Shown: positions 43,347 through 49,335 of the stretch, in pieces
How positions within the stretch are numbered: position 1 is the stretch's first letter
Layout: each line of letters begins with the position of its first letter
Virus record (IMG/VR): IMGVR_UViG_3300031454_000241
Coordinates: 61-64,060 of that record
DNA: 64,000 nt
Direction: 5' to 3' (one strand)
Origin: a virus
Lineage: Duplodnaviria > Caudoviricetes
Translations under genes and position numbers: made by a program
Notes under the pieces: generated by a model
The model's input: the letters and a program-made list of their open reading frames with translations, nothing else
Databases searched by the model: none
What the model was told of the DNA's origin: nothing

Positions 43347-44999
43347 TTACGGCTGGATCGTCCCGCGATTGAAGAGCGTCTCGGCCACGGCATCCCGCGC
43401 CGCCTGATCCTTGAGCAACGCCGTGATCGTGTCATCGTCCTCGCCCATGATTTCCAGTTGCTTACGCGACAACCCGGCGTAGCCCACGATCCGGTTGAGC
43501 TTCATCAACTGCACACGCTCGTACTCTTCGCTCCCCTCGACCGGGGCGATCTCGTCTAGCAAGGCGCGCTTTGTGATAGCCAGATCGATGGCTCCACGGC
43601 CATACGAATCGAGCCCGACCGGGACGGAGGTCGGGTCCCACGTCACCTTGCCGTCCACCCCCGTGACCTTGACAGTCTCGATGATGCGGAACATGGCCTG
43701 CGCCCGGGTCAGGTTGCCACTGTCGTCGTCCCACGCGCCGTTATTTGCCCGGTGGCAGCCGATGGAGACCAGCATCTGCATGATCTTCACAAGGGCGGCG
43801 TCGAGGTTGCCCATCGTCTCGTCGAACCGGGCCCGGACGTCGCCGATCATGGCCTCGGCGCCCGGCCCCGTGACCTGCGACATGCCGCGGAGCTCCTGAT
43901 CCATCACGATCTCGGGCAAGTCCGACTCGACCTCGGCCACGATGGCGGCCATCCGGGCCTCGGCGCCGGCGAAGTCCATCGCGCCCAGGAGCCCGTCGGA
44001 GCGGCCGTTCTCGCCGTTCCAGTGCAGGATGCGGGTGCCGCCCTCGGTCGCTTCGACGGTCGCGGTGCCGCCCGGCGTCGTAGGGCGCGTCTCGGTGATG
44101 ACCTGGAGTTTGCCGTTGGCGCCGTAGAACACCCGCGGCTCGTTCAGCGTCCGGGCCAGCCGGGCCTCCACGAACGCGGCGATGGCGTTGATCCGGTCCA
44201 GCTTCGGCAGCACCGACGCCACCAGCGACACGCCGAACAGCCGGGAGCCGCGCAGCCGCGACACCACCCAGACGCCGGGGCAGAACCCGTAGCCGTGCCG
44301 GTCGGTCCGTTCCAGCTTGTCGTCGCGGTACCAGCGGGTGGTCTGGTTGTCGACCTCCTTGCGGAACGCGTAGGAACCGCGGTCATCATTCGTCGTGTAG
44401 GCCAGCACGTACCGCTTGACGTCCCCGCGACTGTTCAGGGCGATGTCGGCCACCTGCCAGAGCGGGATCACCTCGGCCGTGACCTTGCGCCGTTCGGGCG
44501 GGCCGGACAGGTCGTCGTGGATCTCGACGAACTGCGAGCCGAGCAGCTGCGTGCGGGCAATCAGGGCCGGCAGGACCGACCGGAAGTTGCTCCACGTCAG
44601 CGCCTGGAACGCCGCCTCCACCACCAGCGGCCGCGCCTGCCAGACGTCATCCGGCACCGGGATCAGATTCGGCGTGCCGTCGGGCAGCGAGCGCCCGTCC
44701 TCGGTCCACGTACCACGATAGAGATGCCCGGCATACCAATCCACTGCCCGCTGCACCGGGTTGTAGACGGGCCTGATCCACTTCGGGAGATTGTTGGATC
44801 GTTTATAGTCCTCCCAGTACGCCCAGTCGTTTTCGTCGTAGGCACGGTTATCGGCCCAGCTTTCGAGAACGGTCCACTGCTGACGCCGGGCCGCGAACAC
44901 CGCCGCGACCGAGGTCTCGGGACTCTCGACAATGGCATCGCTCTTGCGCAGGGCGCCGCCGAGCGTACGGGCCGTGGAGAGCGTTCCCTCGAAGGCCAT
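43347..44999 (-). CDS. Portal protein
   Basis: 550 aa after TerL; YNPVQRAVDW, LPKLDRIN; synteny. Confidence 0.8.
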   Translation of the reverse strand: MAFEGTLSTARTLGGALRKSDAIVESPETSVAAVFAARRQQWTVLESWADNRAYDENDWAYWEDYKRSNNLPKWIRPVYNPVQRAVDWYAGHLYRGTWTEDGRSLPDGTPNLIPVPDDVWQARPLVVEAAFQALTWSNFRSVLPALIARTQLLGSQFVEIHDDLSGPPERRKVTAEVIPLWQVADIALNSRGDVKRYVLAYTTNDDRGSYAFRKEVDNQTTRWYRDDKLERTDRHGYGFCPGVWVVSRLRGSRLFGVSLVASVLPKLDRINAIAAFVEARLARTLNEPRVFYGANGKLQVITETRPTTPGGTATVEATEGGTRILHWNGENGRSDGLLGAMDFAGAEARMAAIVAEVESDLPEIVMDQELRGMSQVTGPGAEAMIGDVRARFDETMGNLDAALVKIMQMLVSIGCHRANNGAWDDDSGNLTRAQAMFRIIETVKVTGVDGKVTWDPTSVPVGLDSYGRGAIDLAITKRALLDEIAPVEGSEEYERVQLMKLNRIVGYAGLSRKQLEIMGEDDDTITALLKDQAARDAVAETLFNRGTIQP

Positions 45000-45202
45000 C
45001 AGGACCCGTCCCGTTCTGCGAGAGCGGCTTCAAGACCAGCGCGGAGCGACGGTGCCATCGCCTGATACATGTCTTCGCGAGTGAACGAATCGTAGCCATC
45101 GATCTGGATGTGCCAAAAGTACTTGTCATGGATGCTAACTGTCTTCGGATCGTGGTCTCGCATCGCGTCCTACGCTGCCCGGACCATCGCATCAGTCACC
45201 AT
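44999..45202 (-). pseudogene. Small ORF with an internal TAG at codon 11 (45170-45172)
   Basis: TGATG-coupled at both ends; MVTDAMVRAA*DAM...RAGLEAAL resembles 45561-45758. Confidence 0.55.
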
Positions 45203-46415: not shown

Positions 46416-46637
46416 TCAGTACCTCACCTGCGAGAGCCAGAACCGGGCTTCGCGGAGCTTGACGATCATCTGGTCAACGTCCTTTCGGCCACGATCCTGA
46501 CCGATCAGACCAGCAAGCCGGAAGGCACTGGATATGACGGCATTGCATTCGTCTTCGAGGGCAAGGACCGCCGCCTCGATAGATCGATCTCTGGCGAAAT
46601 CCCGGTCCATGTTCTCGTCCTGCCCGATATCGCTCAT
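46416..46637 (-). CDS. Small helical-hairpin protein
   Basis: ATGA-coupled to TerL; KLREARFWL motif. Confidence 0.6.
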   Translation of the reverse strand: MSDIGQDENMDRDFARDRSIEAAVLALEDECNAVISSAFRLAGLIGQDRGRKDVDQMIVKLREARFWLSQVRY

Positions 46638-48841
46638 AGCCCGTACTCCCCGTATGGATCGTCGTAGGGGTCAGTGTCCGCATAAGATCCGAGCATCACC
46701 TGCTCGATCTCGGCGGCGGTGGCGGCGGGGCCGGTCGTGGCGTCGATCACGGCCATCACGGCATGGACCAAGGCGTCGCAGTTATGGACAAGGATTCCGT
46801 TGGCGAAGTAGGTGTGCGCATGGGCAACCGTGAGGTTGTAGACCCGCTCATGCCGCGATTCTCTCTCTGGCTGTGAGATCGGCCACTCGGGCAAGTCGGC
46901 GACGGCAGAGTCGTGAACACCAATTCCCCTGGCCCATCGTTCGATACGCTGTACCGCACGACTCACAGATTCGATCAACCATGCGCTCATCTGCGATCCG
47001 CTGGGCATGTTCACGATGCCATGTCCGACCTTCTGGCGAACGATGCCAGGCAACGGTGAGAGGGCGGATGCTATCGAGGTGTTCCTCCATGCCGGGATAC
47101 CGCATGACATGTAATCTTCGATGCTTTGATTGAAGTACTGGTTCAAGGTTTTCGGGAGCGTTGTTGAGCGGGTTTTCATCGATATGATGAACCTGATGGC
47201 CGGTCGGGACTTTGCACCGATTCGCATTTTCCCAAATCGCGACATGGAGCCCTTTGGCTCCTTTTCGCTCCGCGTTGCGCGTGGACTGACTGAGGTAATA
47301 GCGCCTGGTTCCCATGAGTCGGTACCGCACACCGTCAAAAGCAACCTCGGCCGGAGAAGACATGGTGTCTGGATAGTCCATTGCAGTTGATCCTCCTCAG
47401 TAATTGAGCCAAGCGAGACGAACCCGCGCCCTTGCACATAGACCGGGTGATTCGCAGTGCCAGTTAGACCCTGACGCGTCACAACGGGTCGAATGCCGGT
47501 GGTCCCCGCGGCCAGCACGGAGCAAGGCCCAATCGGAGTACAAACCATGTCTCCCGCCCTGATTCGTTCAATAGGAACCGGTCCGGATGGCGTATCGATC
47601 AGCGTGCCCGCAACGAAGCACTCGTCATCGTTGTCGCCGCTGACCGGGAATCCGCAGAGCTGATCCTCGGCAGACGCGAACGTGCCGACGTGATGGATCC
47701 GCCCCTGCTCATAAAGTGAGGCGACCGGCTCGGCCCGCACGCGCTTGCCCCGTGATGCGTGGATCAGCCGCACCCGTGGCCGGACGCGCCCGACGCCGGC
47801 GGCGGTGTTGATCGTCTCGCGGACCATCTCGCCACCCTGGTTGCTCTCGGCTGCGATCTCATTGGCCTCAAACCGGTCATGGTCGCGGATCGCCTCACTG
47901 GCCCACTGGTGCGGCGCGACACGAAGCCCCCGGATGTCGAGCACGTAGTAGTCACCGTCGACGCCCCGTCCGACCGTCGCGAGGCCGGTGGCGTCGCTGT
48001 TCTCGCCGTAGGTCGTGGCGGGATCGACAGCTGTGGCAATACGAACCAACTCGGGCACCTGATCGGGCCGAACGCGATAGTCGTCGATCATCCGGCGGAC
48101 CCACAGAGCGCCCTCGATGTCCTCAACCAACTCGCCCATGAGTTCCTGGCGACCGAGGGTGGTGCCCTCATACTTCCGGATAATCTGCGTGAAGTACTGC
48201 AATGGCAGATTTGCCCGGTTGTCGTAGGTCGATCCCCGCGTCGTTACCGTGCCGGGAGCGGCAATCAGGTCCTTGACCATCCGGGTCGGGCGCGGAGTCG
48301 ATGTCACAACCTCACGCGGATCAGCACCCAAGCGAAGCCCGAACTGCAATTGATCCCGAGCATCGGGGTATCTCCACGCCGCCATTTCGTCCGACCAAGC
48401 CCCGTCATGCTGTGGACCGCGCAACCTATCAGGCTCATCGGCGCTGTAGGTGAAAGCGACCGCACCATTGGCAAACGTCAACTTGCGCAGCGACGGGTTG
48501 TACGTGACCCCGAACCCGGCCCGGTGGCAGCACGCCTTCAGCCCCGACTCGCCGTTGACCATCACGTCCCGGACATCGGCGGCGGTGGACCCGACCAGCG
48601 CGACCCGGCCCATCCGGCCGGCCTGCACTTCCTGCCGAATGAACTCGGCACCTGTCCGAGTCTTTCCCCACCCACGCCCCGAAAGAATGAGCCACGTGCG
48701 CCAGTCGCCCGGCGGTGGAAGTTGATCCGGTCGGGCGCTGCCGTTCGGACCGCTCCACGGATCGTTGGCCCGCCTATGCCGCAGCGCAACGCCAGCCAGC
48801 CGCAGCAGATCGGGCGTGAGTGGCTGCGTCGCGGTTGCCAT
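46634..48841 (-). CDS. terL: Terminase large subunit (intein-containing)
   Basis: Walker A GRGWGKT, Walker B AWSDE, AVDPA, ESNQG, and DDE|CDA nuclease motif split by an intein. Confidence 0.95.
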   Translation of the reverse strand: MATATQPLTPDLLRLAGVALRHRRANDPWSGPNGSARPDQLPPPGDWRTWLILSGRGWGKTRTGAEFIRQEVQAGRMGRVALVGSTAADVRDVMVNGESGLKACCHRAGFGVTYNPSLRKLTFANGAVAFTYSADEPDRLRGPQHDGAWSDEMAAWRYPDARDQLQFGLRLGADPREVVTSTPRPTRMVKDLIAAPGTVTTRGSTYDNRANLPLQYFTQIIRKYEGTTLGRQELMGELVEDIEGALWVRRMIDDYRVRPDQVPELVRIATAVDPATTYGENSDATGLATVGRGVDGDYYVLDIRGLRVAPHQWASEAIRDHDRFEANEIAAESNQGGEMVRETINTAAGVGRVRPRVRLIHASRGKRVRAEPVASLYEQGRIHHVGTFASAEDQLCGFPVSGDNDDECFVAGTLIDTPSGPVPIERIRAGDMVCTPIGPCSVLAAGTTGIRPVVTRQGLTGTANHPVYVQGRGFVSLGSITEEDQLQWTIQTPCLLRPRLLLTVCGTDSWEPGAITSVSPRATRSEKEPKGSMSRFGKMRIGAKSRPAIRFIISMKTRSTTLPKTLNQYFNQSIEDYMSCGIPAWRNTSIASALSPLPGIVRQKVGHGIVNMPSGSQMSAWLIESVSRAVQRIERWARGIGVHDSAVADLPEWPISQPERESRHERVYNLTVAHAHTYFANGILVHNCDALVHAVMAVIDATTGPAATAAEIEQVMLGSYADTDPYDDPYGEYGL
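46781..47620 (-). mobile_element. Intein (280 aa) in the TerL nuclease domain, with no in-frame endonuclease
   Basis: Block A CFVAGTLI, block B TGTANHPV, block F VYNLTV, block G YFANGILVHN followed by Cys+1. Confidence 0.92.
46848..47381 (-). CDS. HNH endonuclease nested in an alternative frame inside the TerL intein
   Basis: LHVAIWE...HQVHHIDENPLNNAPENLE...H; C-terminal CxxC...CSRLC; GAGGAGG SD 10 nt upstream; frame offset from TerL. Confidence 0.9.
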   Translation of the reverse strand: MDYPDTMSSPAEVAFDGVRYRLMGTRRYYLSQSTRNAERKGAKGLHVAIWENANRCKVPTGHQVHHIDENPLNNAPENLEPVLQSKHRRLHVMRYPGMEEHLDSIRPLTVAWHRSPEGRTWHREHAQRIADERMVDRICESCGTAYRTMGQGNWCSRLCRRRLARVADLTARERIAA

Positions 48842-49335
48842 CAGACGCCGCCTGCCGTCTGGGCGATGATGGCCTCGGCTTCGGCGATGACTTCCTTTGC
48901 AGACAATCCGAGGCTCTGGGCGATCTGATCGGCAACCAGCTGGATCGTGACGGTCCGGTGATCCTCGGTCGGCGCCTTACGGTCAAGCCCGAGGTAGAGC
49001 GCCCGACGATCCATCGCCTTGAGGACGAGTTCGGCGTGCCGTGGCGACTTCTTCTCGATGACGATGGGGAGGAACGCCTTGATGATGAGATCGAGGCGTT
49101 CGAGCTCCAGTCGCAGGACGTCTTCGCCCGGTTCCTGGATCAGCTTGCGCAGCGCCGACATGACGGACTTATGGGCACCGCCGGCATTGGCGTACCCGAC
49201 CTCTTCCGCAATCTGCTCATAGCCGTAGCCGAGCTTGCGAAGCGATAACGCTTCGAGCTGCTTCTCGGCAGCGGAGAGCCCGCCGTTTTTCCTGTCCTTA
49301 TGTCCGGTCGGGTTCGGGTCCTGCACGGCGCACAC
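48841..49335 (-). CDS. Terminase small subunit
   Basis: ALSLRKLGYGYEQIAEEVGY HTH, ELERLD, AMDRRALYLGLD; TGATG-coupled to TerL. Confidence 0.85.
   Translation of the reverse strand: MCAVQDPNPTGHKDRKNGGLSAAEKQLEALSLRKLGYGYEQIAEEVGYANAGGAHKSVMSALRKLIQEPGEDVLRLELERLDLIIKAFLPIVIEKKSPRHAELVLKAMDRRALYLGLDRKAPTEDHRTVTIQLVADQIAQSLGLSAKEVIAEAEAIIAQTAGGV

Follow-up and report, generated by a model that had tools for sequence, protein, structure and literature searches.

Nuclease genes that overlap an intein in a second reading frame have entered the literature only recently. The first out-of-frame, same-strand case was reported in 2025, an EndoVII-like open reading frame (ORF) in 'frame 3' of the terminase large subunit (TerL) intein of four Gordonia phages (Gosselin et al. 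2025; bioRxiv 10.1101/2025.01.02.630785). Here we describe an element of the same kind in 64,000 nucleotides (nt) of DNA from a tailed virus (Duplodnaviria; Caudoviricetes), positions 61 to 64,060 of IMG/VR record IMGVR_UViG_3300031454_000241; this whole stretch is called the window below. Its terL gene contains a class-1 intein, and between the splicing blocks of that intein a complete HNH nuclease ORF lies in another frame of the same strand. Very probably, this is a composite selfish element in a prophage terL, i.e., a mobile class-1 intein that homes via a separately translated, I-HmuI-like HNH_3 nuclease.

The Gordonia TerL intein, which we checked on Affeca (L085), shares with the window a class-1 intein in terL, a same-strand nuclease ORF between the splicing blocks at an offset of +2, and an intein-frame middle that is unstructured; its proposed origin is likewise the invasion of an intein by a free-standing homing endonuclease gene (HEG). 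The Affeca nuclease, however, is of the Endonuclease_7 type, with no detectable similarity to the window HNH (BLASTP E=2), and its insertion site is the ATPase motif TRWHEDDL, whereas the window site is the nuclease motif. The Gordonia-type case has been reported only from a few closely related actinobacteriophages, in contrast to the HNH family described here, which spans many lineages of bacterial and archaeal viruses. Judged by these sequence comparisons, the window element is an independent lineage with the same architecture. It has the features by which Gosselin et al. 2025 recognise non-canonical inteins, namely an overlapping homing endonuclease in another frame, a stop-free intein frame that is predicted to stay unfolded and, at the level of the family, selection on the nuclease frame.

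A second case, the cyanobacterial dnaX intein with an overlapping '+2ORF' LAGLIDADG endonuclease, followed in 2026 (bioRxiv 10.64898/2026.09.14.751524). As in the window, a disordered middle lies over a confidently folded nuclease ORF and constraint falls on the nuclease frame, and that paper also proposes secondary invasion of a mini-intein; unlike in the window, the host gene is cellular, the nuclease is a LAGLIDADG enzyme and only one phylum is involved. Because the Gordonia TerL and dnaX cases had already been reported, the concept is not new; the novelty lies in which nuclease family and insertion site are involved, in how widely the element occurs, and in the coexistence of free and split states. 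An earlier reading of the window from its letters and ORFs, referred to here as the sequence-only reading, named out-of-frame HNHs in phage methylase insertions but none inside a splicing intein, and in this overstated the novelty, given that out-of-frame homing nucleases of other families had been published in inteins at other sites. Our literature search found no description of an HNH_3-in-TerL-intein family, and this large family is apparently undescribed.

Other systems share parts of the arrangement. Insertions in the DNA methylase genes of ShiLan-type phages hide an out-of-frame HNH (PMC11855218), and there too a zinc-finger HNH occupies the third frame, the insertion is stop-free in the host frame and internal initiation has been proposed. 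Unlike the window insert, however, these insertions have no HINT splicing domain, so that the read-through presumably remains part of the host protein, whereas the read-through in the window should be spliced out because it is flanked by an intact intein. In fractured genes, split inteins have a free-standing HEG between their halves, and contiguous intermediates have been proposed (Dassa et al. 2009, PMC2677866). The window intein is contiguous in one ORF, so it is not a fractured gene; it resembles those proposed intermediates, while the fractured layout is matched exactly by two relatives (L052 and L080). The nucleases of the fractured genes are GIY-YIG and Vsr-like, not HNH (PMC2677866). 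The dCTP deaminase intein of cyanophage CL131 (PMC6293099) also combines an HNH_3 nuclease with a self-splicing element in a phage gene, but its HNH_3 domain is translated in frame, whereas the window nuclease would be a separate polypeptide from an overlapping frame. I-HmuI of phage SPO1 (PDB 1U3E) has the HNH_3 fold as well, but is encoded in a group I intron. Packaging HNH proteins of the HK97 gp74 type, which are small PF01844 members with a constant terminase partner, are a poorer comparison, since the window HNH belongs to HNH_3 and is absent from the closest TerL relatives.

The intein and the nested HNH frame

The window terL encodes a 735-amino acid (aa) precursor in which Pfam detects Terminase_6N (residues 52-249) and Terminase_6C (271-387) and for which the PHROG match is terminase large subunit. 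It is flanked by a small-terminase-like gene and the portal gene. Its parts are listed here; AF2 stands for AlphaFold2, pLDDT for its predicted local distance difference test score, and P0002 to P0005 are intein-less TerL relatives.

46634-48841, minus strand: terL precursor ORF, 735 aa, comprising N-extein, intein and C-extein (ORF list, Pfam, PHROG)
47621-48841, minus strand: N-extein, TerL residues 1-407, whose last residues ...GDNDDE are a conserved motif of the RNase H-like nuclease domain (alignment with P0002-P0005, DNA junction alignment)
46781-47620, minus strand: class-1 intein, 280 aa (Cys1...His-Asn), TerL residues 408-687, absent from the closest TerL homologs
47366-47620, minus strand: N-terminal splicing lobe, about intein residues 1-85, blocks A and B, with TANH at 55-58 (AF2, Hint_2)
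46865-47365, minus strand: intein-frame filler, about residues 86-252, predicted disordered read-through of the HNH gene (pLDDT about 36-50)
46781-46858, minus strand: C-terminal splicing lobe, blocks F and G, ...VYNLTV...YFANGILVHN (AF2, Pfam, family conservation)
46848-47381, minus strand: nested HNH ORF, 177 aa, at offset +2 to the intein frame, between the splicing lobes (HNH_3, phrog_15471, AF2)
47109-47252, minus strand: predicted HNH, or beta-beta-alpha-Me, catalytic core, HNH residues 44-91, with LH..IWE, HQVHHID, NN, NL, H87 and H91 (HNH_3, invariant columns)
46905-46967, minus strand: predicted C-terminal treble-clef-like CxxC...CxxxC zinc finger, C139, C142, C155 and C159 (cysteines nearly invariant in alignment A2)
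47392-47398, minus strand: Shine-Dalgarno (SD) sequence GAGGAGG, 10 nt 5' of the HNH ATG at 47379-47381 (sequence)
47397-47399, minus strand: TGA that closes the HNH frame upstream, its end lying 15 nt from the ATG (translation WLNY-stop-GGSTAMDYP)
46778-46780, minus strand: Cys+1 codon TGC, C-extein residue 1, which is Val (GTT) in intein-less alleles (protein and DNA alignments)
46634-46780, minus strand: C-extein, 48 aa and a stop (CDALVHA...), which aligns collinearly with the C-terminal ends of intein-less P0002-P0004

The boundaries of the intein follow from comparison with intein-less relatives, which were sought among 5.8 billion proteins with TerL residues 1-407 as the query. The closest ones are 77-80% identical and 458-463 aa long, i.e., the size of the window TerL minus 280 residues. 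In the protein alignment P0002-P0005 lack exactly these residues, the site being DDE followed by V or C and then DAL: where the window has ...GDNDDE-(280 aa)-C-DALVHA..., the relatives have ...GDNDDE-V-DALVHA.... At the DNA level the junction is GACGAG/GTTGAT in the intein-less allele of L165, whose site reads ...GACAACGACGACGAG/GTTGATGCGCTGGTT..., versus GACGAG/(840 nt)/TGCGAC in the window. A megablast search of the window terL against the phage collection gave no match.

That the intein splits DDE from CDA had been proposed in the sequence-only reading, and the alignment confirms an insertion after DNDDE and before (C)DALVHA. In the window and in other hosts the site falls at the end of the RNase H-like nuclease profile (about position 144-148 of 155 in Terminase_6C/3C), and the flanking DD and DAL columns are invariant in the alignment with P0002-P0005, including D405 and D406. 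Since phmmer matched no PDB sequence to an intein-less TerL relative, the placement of the intein in the putative catalytic nuclease motif of TerL is based on the Pfam profile position and the invariant DD..DAL columns, in addition to what is established about TerL nucleases.

Two TerLs that are 66-67% identical to that of the window (P0016 and P0017) have a different intein, about 340 aa long and equipped with a LAGLIDADG_3 domain; it sits in the Walker-A P-loop (GK/ALALDT...HN/T), and their nuclease site is free of inteins. One TerL lineage has therefore been invaded at two sites by two different inteins. The module of the intein-less L165 terL also holds an unrelated HNH_3+AP2 gene (L165:3388-3990), 1.1 kb downstream of terL, which gives only BLASTP E=0.72 with the window HNH. 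In the window, the gene upstream of terL in the small-terminase position (48841-49335, minus strand) has weak helix-turn-helix matches and matches phrog_645, labelled 'Rnase E' in PHROGs, which is probably a mislabelled family.

All residues of a class-1 intein are in place in the window (C1, T55-A-N-H58, H279-N280 and Cys+1), and C1, H58 and N280 are invariant across 47 family members (alignment A3). Pfam matches Hint_2 to TerL 408-443 (33.4 bits; cut-off 28.4) and PT-HINT and Intein_splicing to the C-terminal end (TerL 664-687). AF2 models of the HNH and the intein were built with family alignments. In the intein model, pLDDT is 95-98 for the N-lobe (residues 1-80) and 96-97 for the C-lobe (residues 255-280), versus about 40 for the approximately 170 residues between them, and Foldseek relates the model to BIL, DnaB, gp41-1 and RecA mini-inteins with probability 1.00, via the lobes only. 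The filler has no Pfam match at E<=1 and no PHROG match. These data bear out two points of the sequence-only reading: a 280-aa intein at 46781-47620 with intact splicing blocks and no in-frame endonuclease (Pfam finds only the terminal splicing matches), and an intein-frame middle that is not a recognisable domain. On its residues, its modelled HINT fold and its in-frame insertion relative to intein-less relatives, the window intein is classed as a class-1 HINT intein, and it would be expected to splice.

The complete 177-aa HNH ORF that had been seen in the other frame is recognised by HNH_3 (PF13392) over residues 44-82, with 38.1 bits versus a gathering cut-off of 24.8 (E=1.2e-9), and nearly in full by phrog_15471, 'HNH endonuclease' (E=1.8e-26). 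Seven residues that are invariant in 64 sequences (alignment A2), namely H46, H66, D68, N73, N78, L79 and H87, with the predicted catalytic residues H66, D68, N73, N78 and H87 among them, are kept in the window HNH, which retains 12 of 12 invariant and 12 of 12 near-invariant family residues. The AF2 model folds over its full length with a mean pLDDT of 90.4, and its top structural match in an exhaustive VIA-align search is the homing nickase I-HmuI (1U3E; Z 7.1, root-mean-square deviation 3.4, 78 aa), well above the next matches. Residues 135-177 of the model resemble YacG-type zinc fingers (Z 4.3, VIA-align), and this C-terminal finger is presumed to be a DNA-binding module. By sequence, catalytic residues and modelled fold, the window HNH is assigned to the HNH_3/I-HmuI-like His-Me-finger nucleases.

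Both frames are open across the whole HNH ORF, so that terL, intein and HNH form the three layers noted in the sequence-only reading; the SD sequence 10 nt upstream is indeed read as TEED in the intein frame (...ITEEDQLQW...). Every structural statement of the sequence-only reading holds up. A further claim, that the ending GCGGCATGA is typical of this phage's genes, did not hold up, given that the 64 kb contain 4 matches against 1.3 expected and 4 were reached in 5 of 100 shuffles. A promoter scan predicted no minus-strand promoter inside terL, which makes internal initiation on the terL mRNA the simplest route to the HNH protein.

Recurrence and selection across the family

When 50,697 phage records were searched by tblastn with the HNH, homologs turned up inside the annotated terL genes of four phages, i.e., Clostridium phage phiCDHM19, Acinetobacter phage Highwayman, Tetrasphaera phage TJE1 and a Rhodobacteraceae phage. 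Each of them carries its HNH at offset +2 within an intein that occupies the corresponding terL site, starts with Cys, ends in His-Asn or Ser-Asn and is followed by Cys or Ser; even the 31%-GC Clostridium phage is no exception. Related loci were then scanned with a 5-sequence alignment (A1) as the query. IMG/VR yielded at least 528 relatives, and in the 80 loci on which our counts rest the HNH is nested in 64, all at offset +2. In a GTDB sample of one genome per species, nesting at +2 is seen in 36 of 65 full-length homologs and nesting at +1 in one more (L106), with hosts in the Firmicutes, Cyanobacteria, Actinobacteria, Proteobacteria, Bacteroidota, Chloroflexota, Candidate Phyla Radiation and Planctomycetota as well as several archaeal metagenome-assembled genomes (MAGs). 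The expectation that homologous inteins keep the alternative frame open is thus borne out in all three collections, and an HNH in frame with its intein was looked for among 150 loci and found in none.

The sole +1 offset among about 106 nested cases, L106:551-3076, comes from a Ca. Peribacteria MAG; its intein is of a 'DLVGT' subtype that is also present in split forms. Hundreds of NCBI genomes list the nested C. difficile and Parasutterella copies under the name 'HNH endonuclease signature motif containing protein'. The window HNH and two of six other nested copies tested (L039 and L055) are missing from a collection of 15 billion proteins.

Family inteins are 270-335 aa long, and the HNH begins 80-95 residues past Cys1 and stops 12-25 residues before the end of the intein. 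The distribution is sporadic, and the TerLs that carry the element come from more than one Pfam family (Terminase_6 and Terminase_3). Over the 250 extein residues that precede the intein, 71% of locus pairs share no detectable similarity, while HNH similarity is detectable in 100%; the intein-HNH element is more conserved than its host gene.

The HNH also occurs outside inteins. It is free-standing directly beside an intein-less terL in L025, L026, L030, L031, L056, L059-L061, L066, L068 and L077. In L052 (1469-3796) and L080 (1449-3794), terL is fractured into TerL-N plus IntN, a free HNH ORF, and IntC plus TerL-C; the split intein is related to the nested family and has the same terL site and the same HNH family. 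The L052-type HNH is annotated in Staphylococcus prophages of S. hominis, S. lugdunensis and S. epidermidis genomes. On a tree of 131 HNH sequences the nested state is clustered, with at least five well-supported switches between nested and free, and free forms are found inside nested clades and vice versa. The HNH thus acts like an independent gene, one that enters the intein and leaves it again. This comparative evidence supports both proposals of the sequence-only reading, a separately translated nuclease that serves the intein and an HNH settled in a mini-intein whose filler is spliced out.

Selection was analysed on a nested set of 55 unique HNH ORFs (about 11,500 codons) and a free set of 13 free-standing homologs, and chance was gauged by synonymous-codon shuffles that preserve each protein and its codon pool. 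The nested ORFs have 0 stops in the intein frame versus about 150 expected from the shuffles (median P(0) per ORF 0.03), and 929 stops in their third frame. By contrast, the free-standing homologs have 109 stops in the intein-equivalent frame, in line with their own shuffle expectation. The family-wide absence of intein-frame stops is selection against stops, far beyond chance.

The substitution pattern shows which frame is constrained. Pairwise differences inside the HNH ORF are highest at HNH codon position 3 (0.66, versus 0.50 and 0.46 at the other two), and pairs with at least 95% identity differ by 0.011, 0.002 and 0.032 at positions 1, 2 and 3. Third codon positions of the HNH fall on second positions of the intein frame, so most changes affect the filler and leave the nuclease as it is. 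The N-terminal splicing lobe, by contrast, shows the periodicity of the intein frame. Across the family the HNH frame has 37% amino-acid identity and the filler frame 21%, in agreement with the sequence-only reading of the middle as non-conserved filler, and its prediction that per-frame constraint would lie on the HNH frame is confirmed by the periodicity. Purifying selection on the HNH frame is clear at the level of the family.

Start signals are conserved too. The HNH start codon is ATG in 47 of 55 cases, a stop in the HNH frame precedes it by a median of 18 nt, and SD-like matches of at least 5 nt are found at 40% of nested HNH starts versus 7% of random positions in the same terL ORFs. 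As to the offset, free-standing homologs carry 109 stops in the offset-2 frame versus 262 in the offset-1 frame; with about 2.4 times fewer stops to purge, +2 may be the frame that overprinting of this kind generally takes. In this family, lower stop load and shared ancestry are both plausible reasons for the constant +2 offset, and L106 shows that the other frame is possible. The lower +2 stop load may also explain the 'frame 3/+2' position of the ShiLan HNH, the Affeca EndoVII-like ORF, the dnaX LAGLIDADG ORF and this family.

Proposed mechanism and competing explanations

In the mechanism that we propose, ribosomes on terL would read through the HNH gene in the wrong frame and produce a disordered linker of about 170 residues between the HINT lobes, which would fold and splice out the 280-aa insert to restore ...DDE-C-DAL... 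and an active terminase. Ribosomes that initiate at the internal GAGGAGG-N10-ATG would make the 177-aa HNH from the same late mRNA. The HNH would then nick or cut intein-less terL alleles (...GACGACGAG/GTTGATGCG...) in a co-resident phage or prophage, and recombinational repair would copy intein and HNH into the cut allele, with the Cys+1 codon co-converted. Site-specific nicking or cleavage and homing by the window HNH are predicted from the sporadic distribution of the element and from its conservation across divergent terL genes.

Several observations weigh against this reading of the window copy. The HNH model resembles I-HmuI only moderately (Z 7.1), and its Foldseek matches in the PDB are weak, with E of at least 0.48 throughout and 0.8 for I-HmuI. 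With 177 aa, versus a family median of 213, the window HNH is one of the shortest members; it has no second zinc finger of the kind that most of them carry, and its SD spacing of 10 nt is rather long. For the window ORF alone 1.95 stops are expected and P(0)=0.057, i.e., its double-open frame falls short of significance, and the statistical argument is that of the family. Moreover, long spurious antisense ORFs are common in 62%-GC sequence, which makes the double-open frame of the window HNH alone weak evidence; a 437-aa open frame, for example, runs antisense to the portal gene (43752-45065, plus strand). The window copy has no close relative, and the evidence for selection is at the family level, not that of the window ORF. 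The provirus record (64,060 bp) is judged to be 76% complete. Four of these points, namely the frame statistics of this copy, the short and one-fingered HNH, the incomplete provirus and the lack of close relatives, speak for a rival in which the nested ORF would be a recently dead relic, i.e., a mini-intein with junk filler whose HNH is no longer made or active. We nevertheless think a relic distinctly unlikely: all 24 invariant and near-invariant family residues are retained; start codon, SD and a full-length fold with pLDDT 90 are intact; further single-finger members exist elsewhere (L004, L022, L023 and L069); and purifying selection on the family is clear.

The main functional rival is a role that benefits the host virus, in which the HNH serves the phage and not only its own spread, as a packaging or cos-cleavage factor or as a weapon against competing phages (marker exclusion) that is lodged in the intein. 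Kala et al. (2014, cited in PMC3592412 and PMC11855218) reportedly found that HNH proteins work with terminases in HK97-like phages, and a comparable cooperation would fit the free-standing homologs that directly adjoin terL and the other HNH_3-AP2 gene in the intein-less L165 module. A lasting service to packaging is difficult to reconcile, however, with the closest TerL relatives, which are entirely without the window HNH, or with a family of I-HmuI-like HNH_3 proteins with zinc fingers instead of small PF01844 packaging HNHs. Sporadic occurrence across unrelated TerL families, with intein and HNH conserved, is typical of a selfish element, and we regard a phage-serving HNH as improbable. 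Programmed ribosomal frameshifting to the HNH frame and back, which would make the element a canonical bifunctional intein in disguise, agrees with the direction of the offset, given that -1 (+2) is the usual one for such shifts, and with the nearly constant relative frame across the family. It would require two precise shifts, however, and here the HNH frame is shut by a stop 15 nt ahead of its ATG (median 18 nt in the family), the HNH has its own SD, ATG and stop, and split-intein and free-standing relatives encode the same protein as a separate gene; this explanation is very improbable. Least credible of all is a sequencing or assembly artefact in which two compensating indels make an in-frame HNH look out of frame. 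Nothing specific speaks for it beyond the origin of the record as a metagenome-derived provirus, and the identical architecture and offset recur in over 100 independent loci, some of them in genomes of phage isolates or in complete bacterial chromosomes, with no in-frame HNH among the 150 loci.

Meaning for intein evolution

Beyond the mobile intein with its own nuclease in this window, a wider reading of the family, for which we see the case as evenly balanced, is that of an ancient intein-nuclease partnership in tailed viruses of bacteria and archaea, in which the HNH is nearly always overprinted at +2 on an intein at the TerL nuclease site and free, nested and split stages coexist. It would be the first natural series for the acquisition of nucleases by mini-inteins and for the origin of split inteins. 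In practical terms, nested nucleases are called inconsistently in annotation, and an intein such as this one is easily mistaken for a decaying one. For protein engineering, inteins able to accommodate some 170 arbitrary, disordered residues are of interest, as are compact HNH nickases with predicted site-specific activity. The element is also an extreme case of gene overlap, with three nested information layers, i.e., extein, intein and nuclease, under two kinds of selection, one frame being selected for protein sequence and the other only to have no stop codons and stay disordered. The family offers a broad natural data set for the model of intein evolution in which protein splicing comes first and the nuclease invades later, and, with free, nested and split states in one family, it bears on how split inteins arose.

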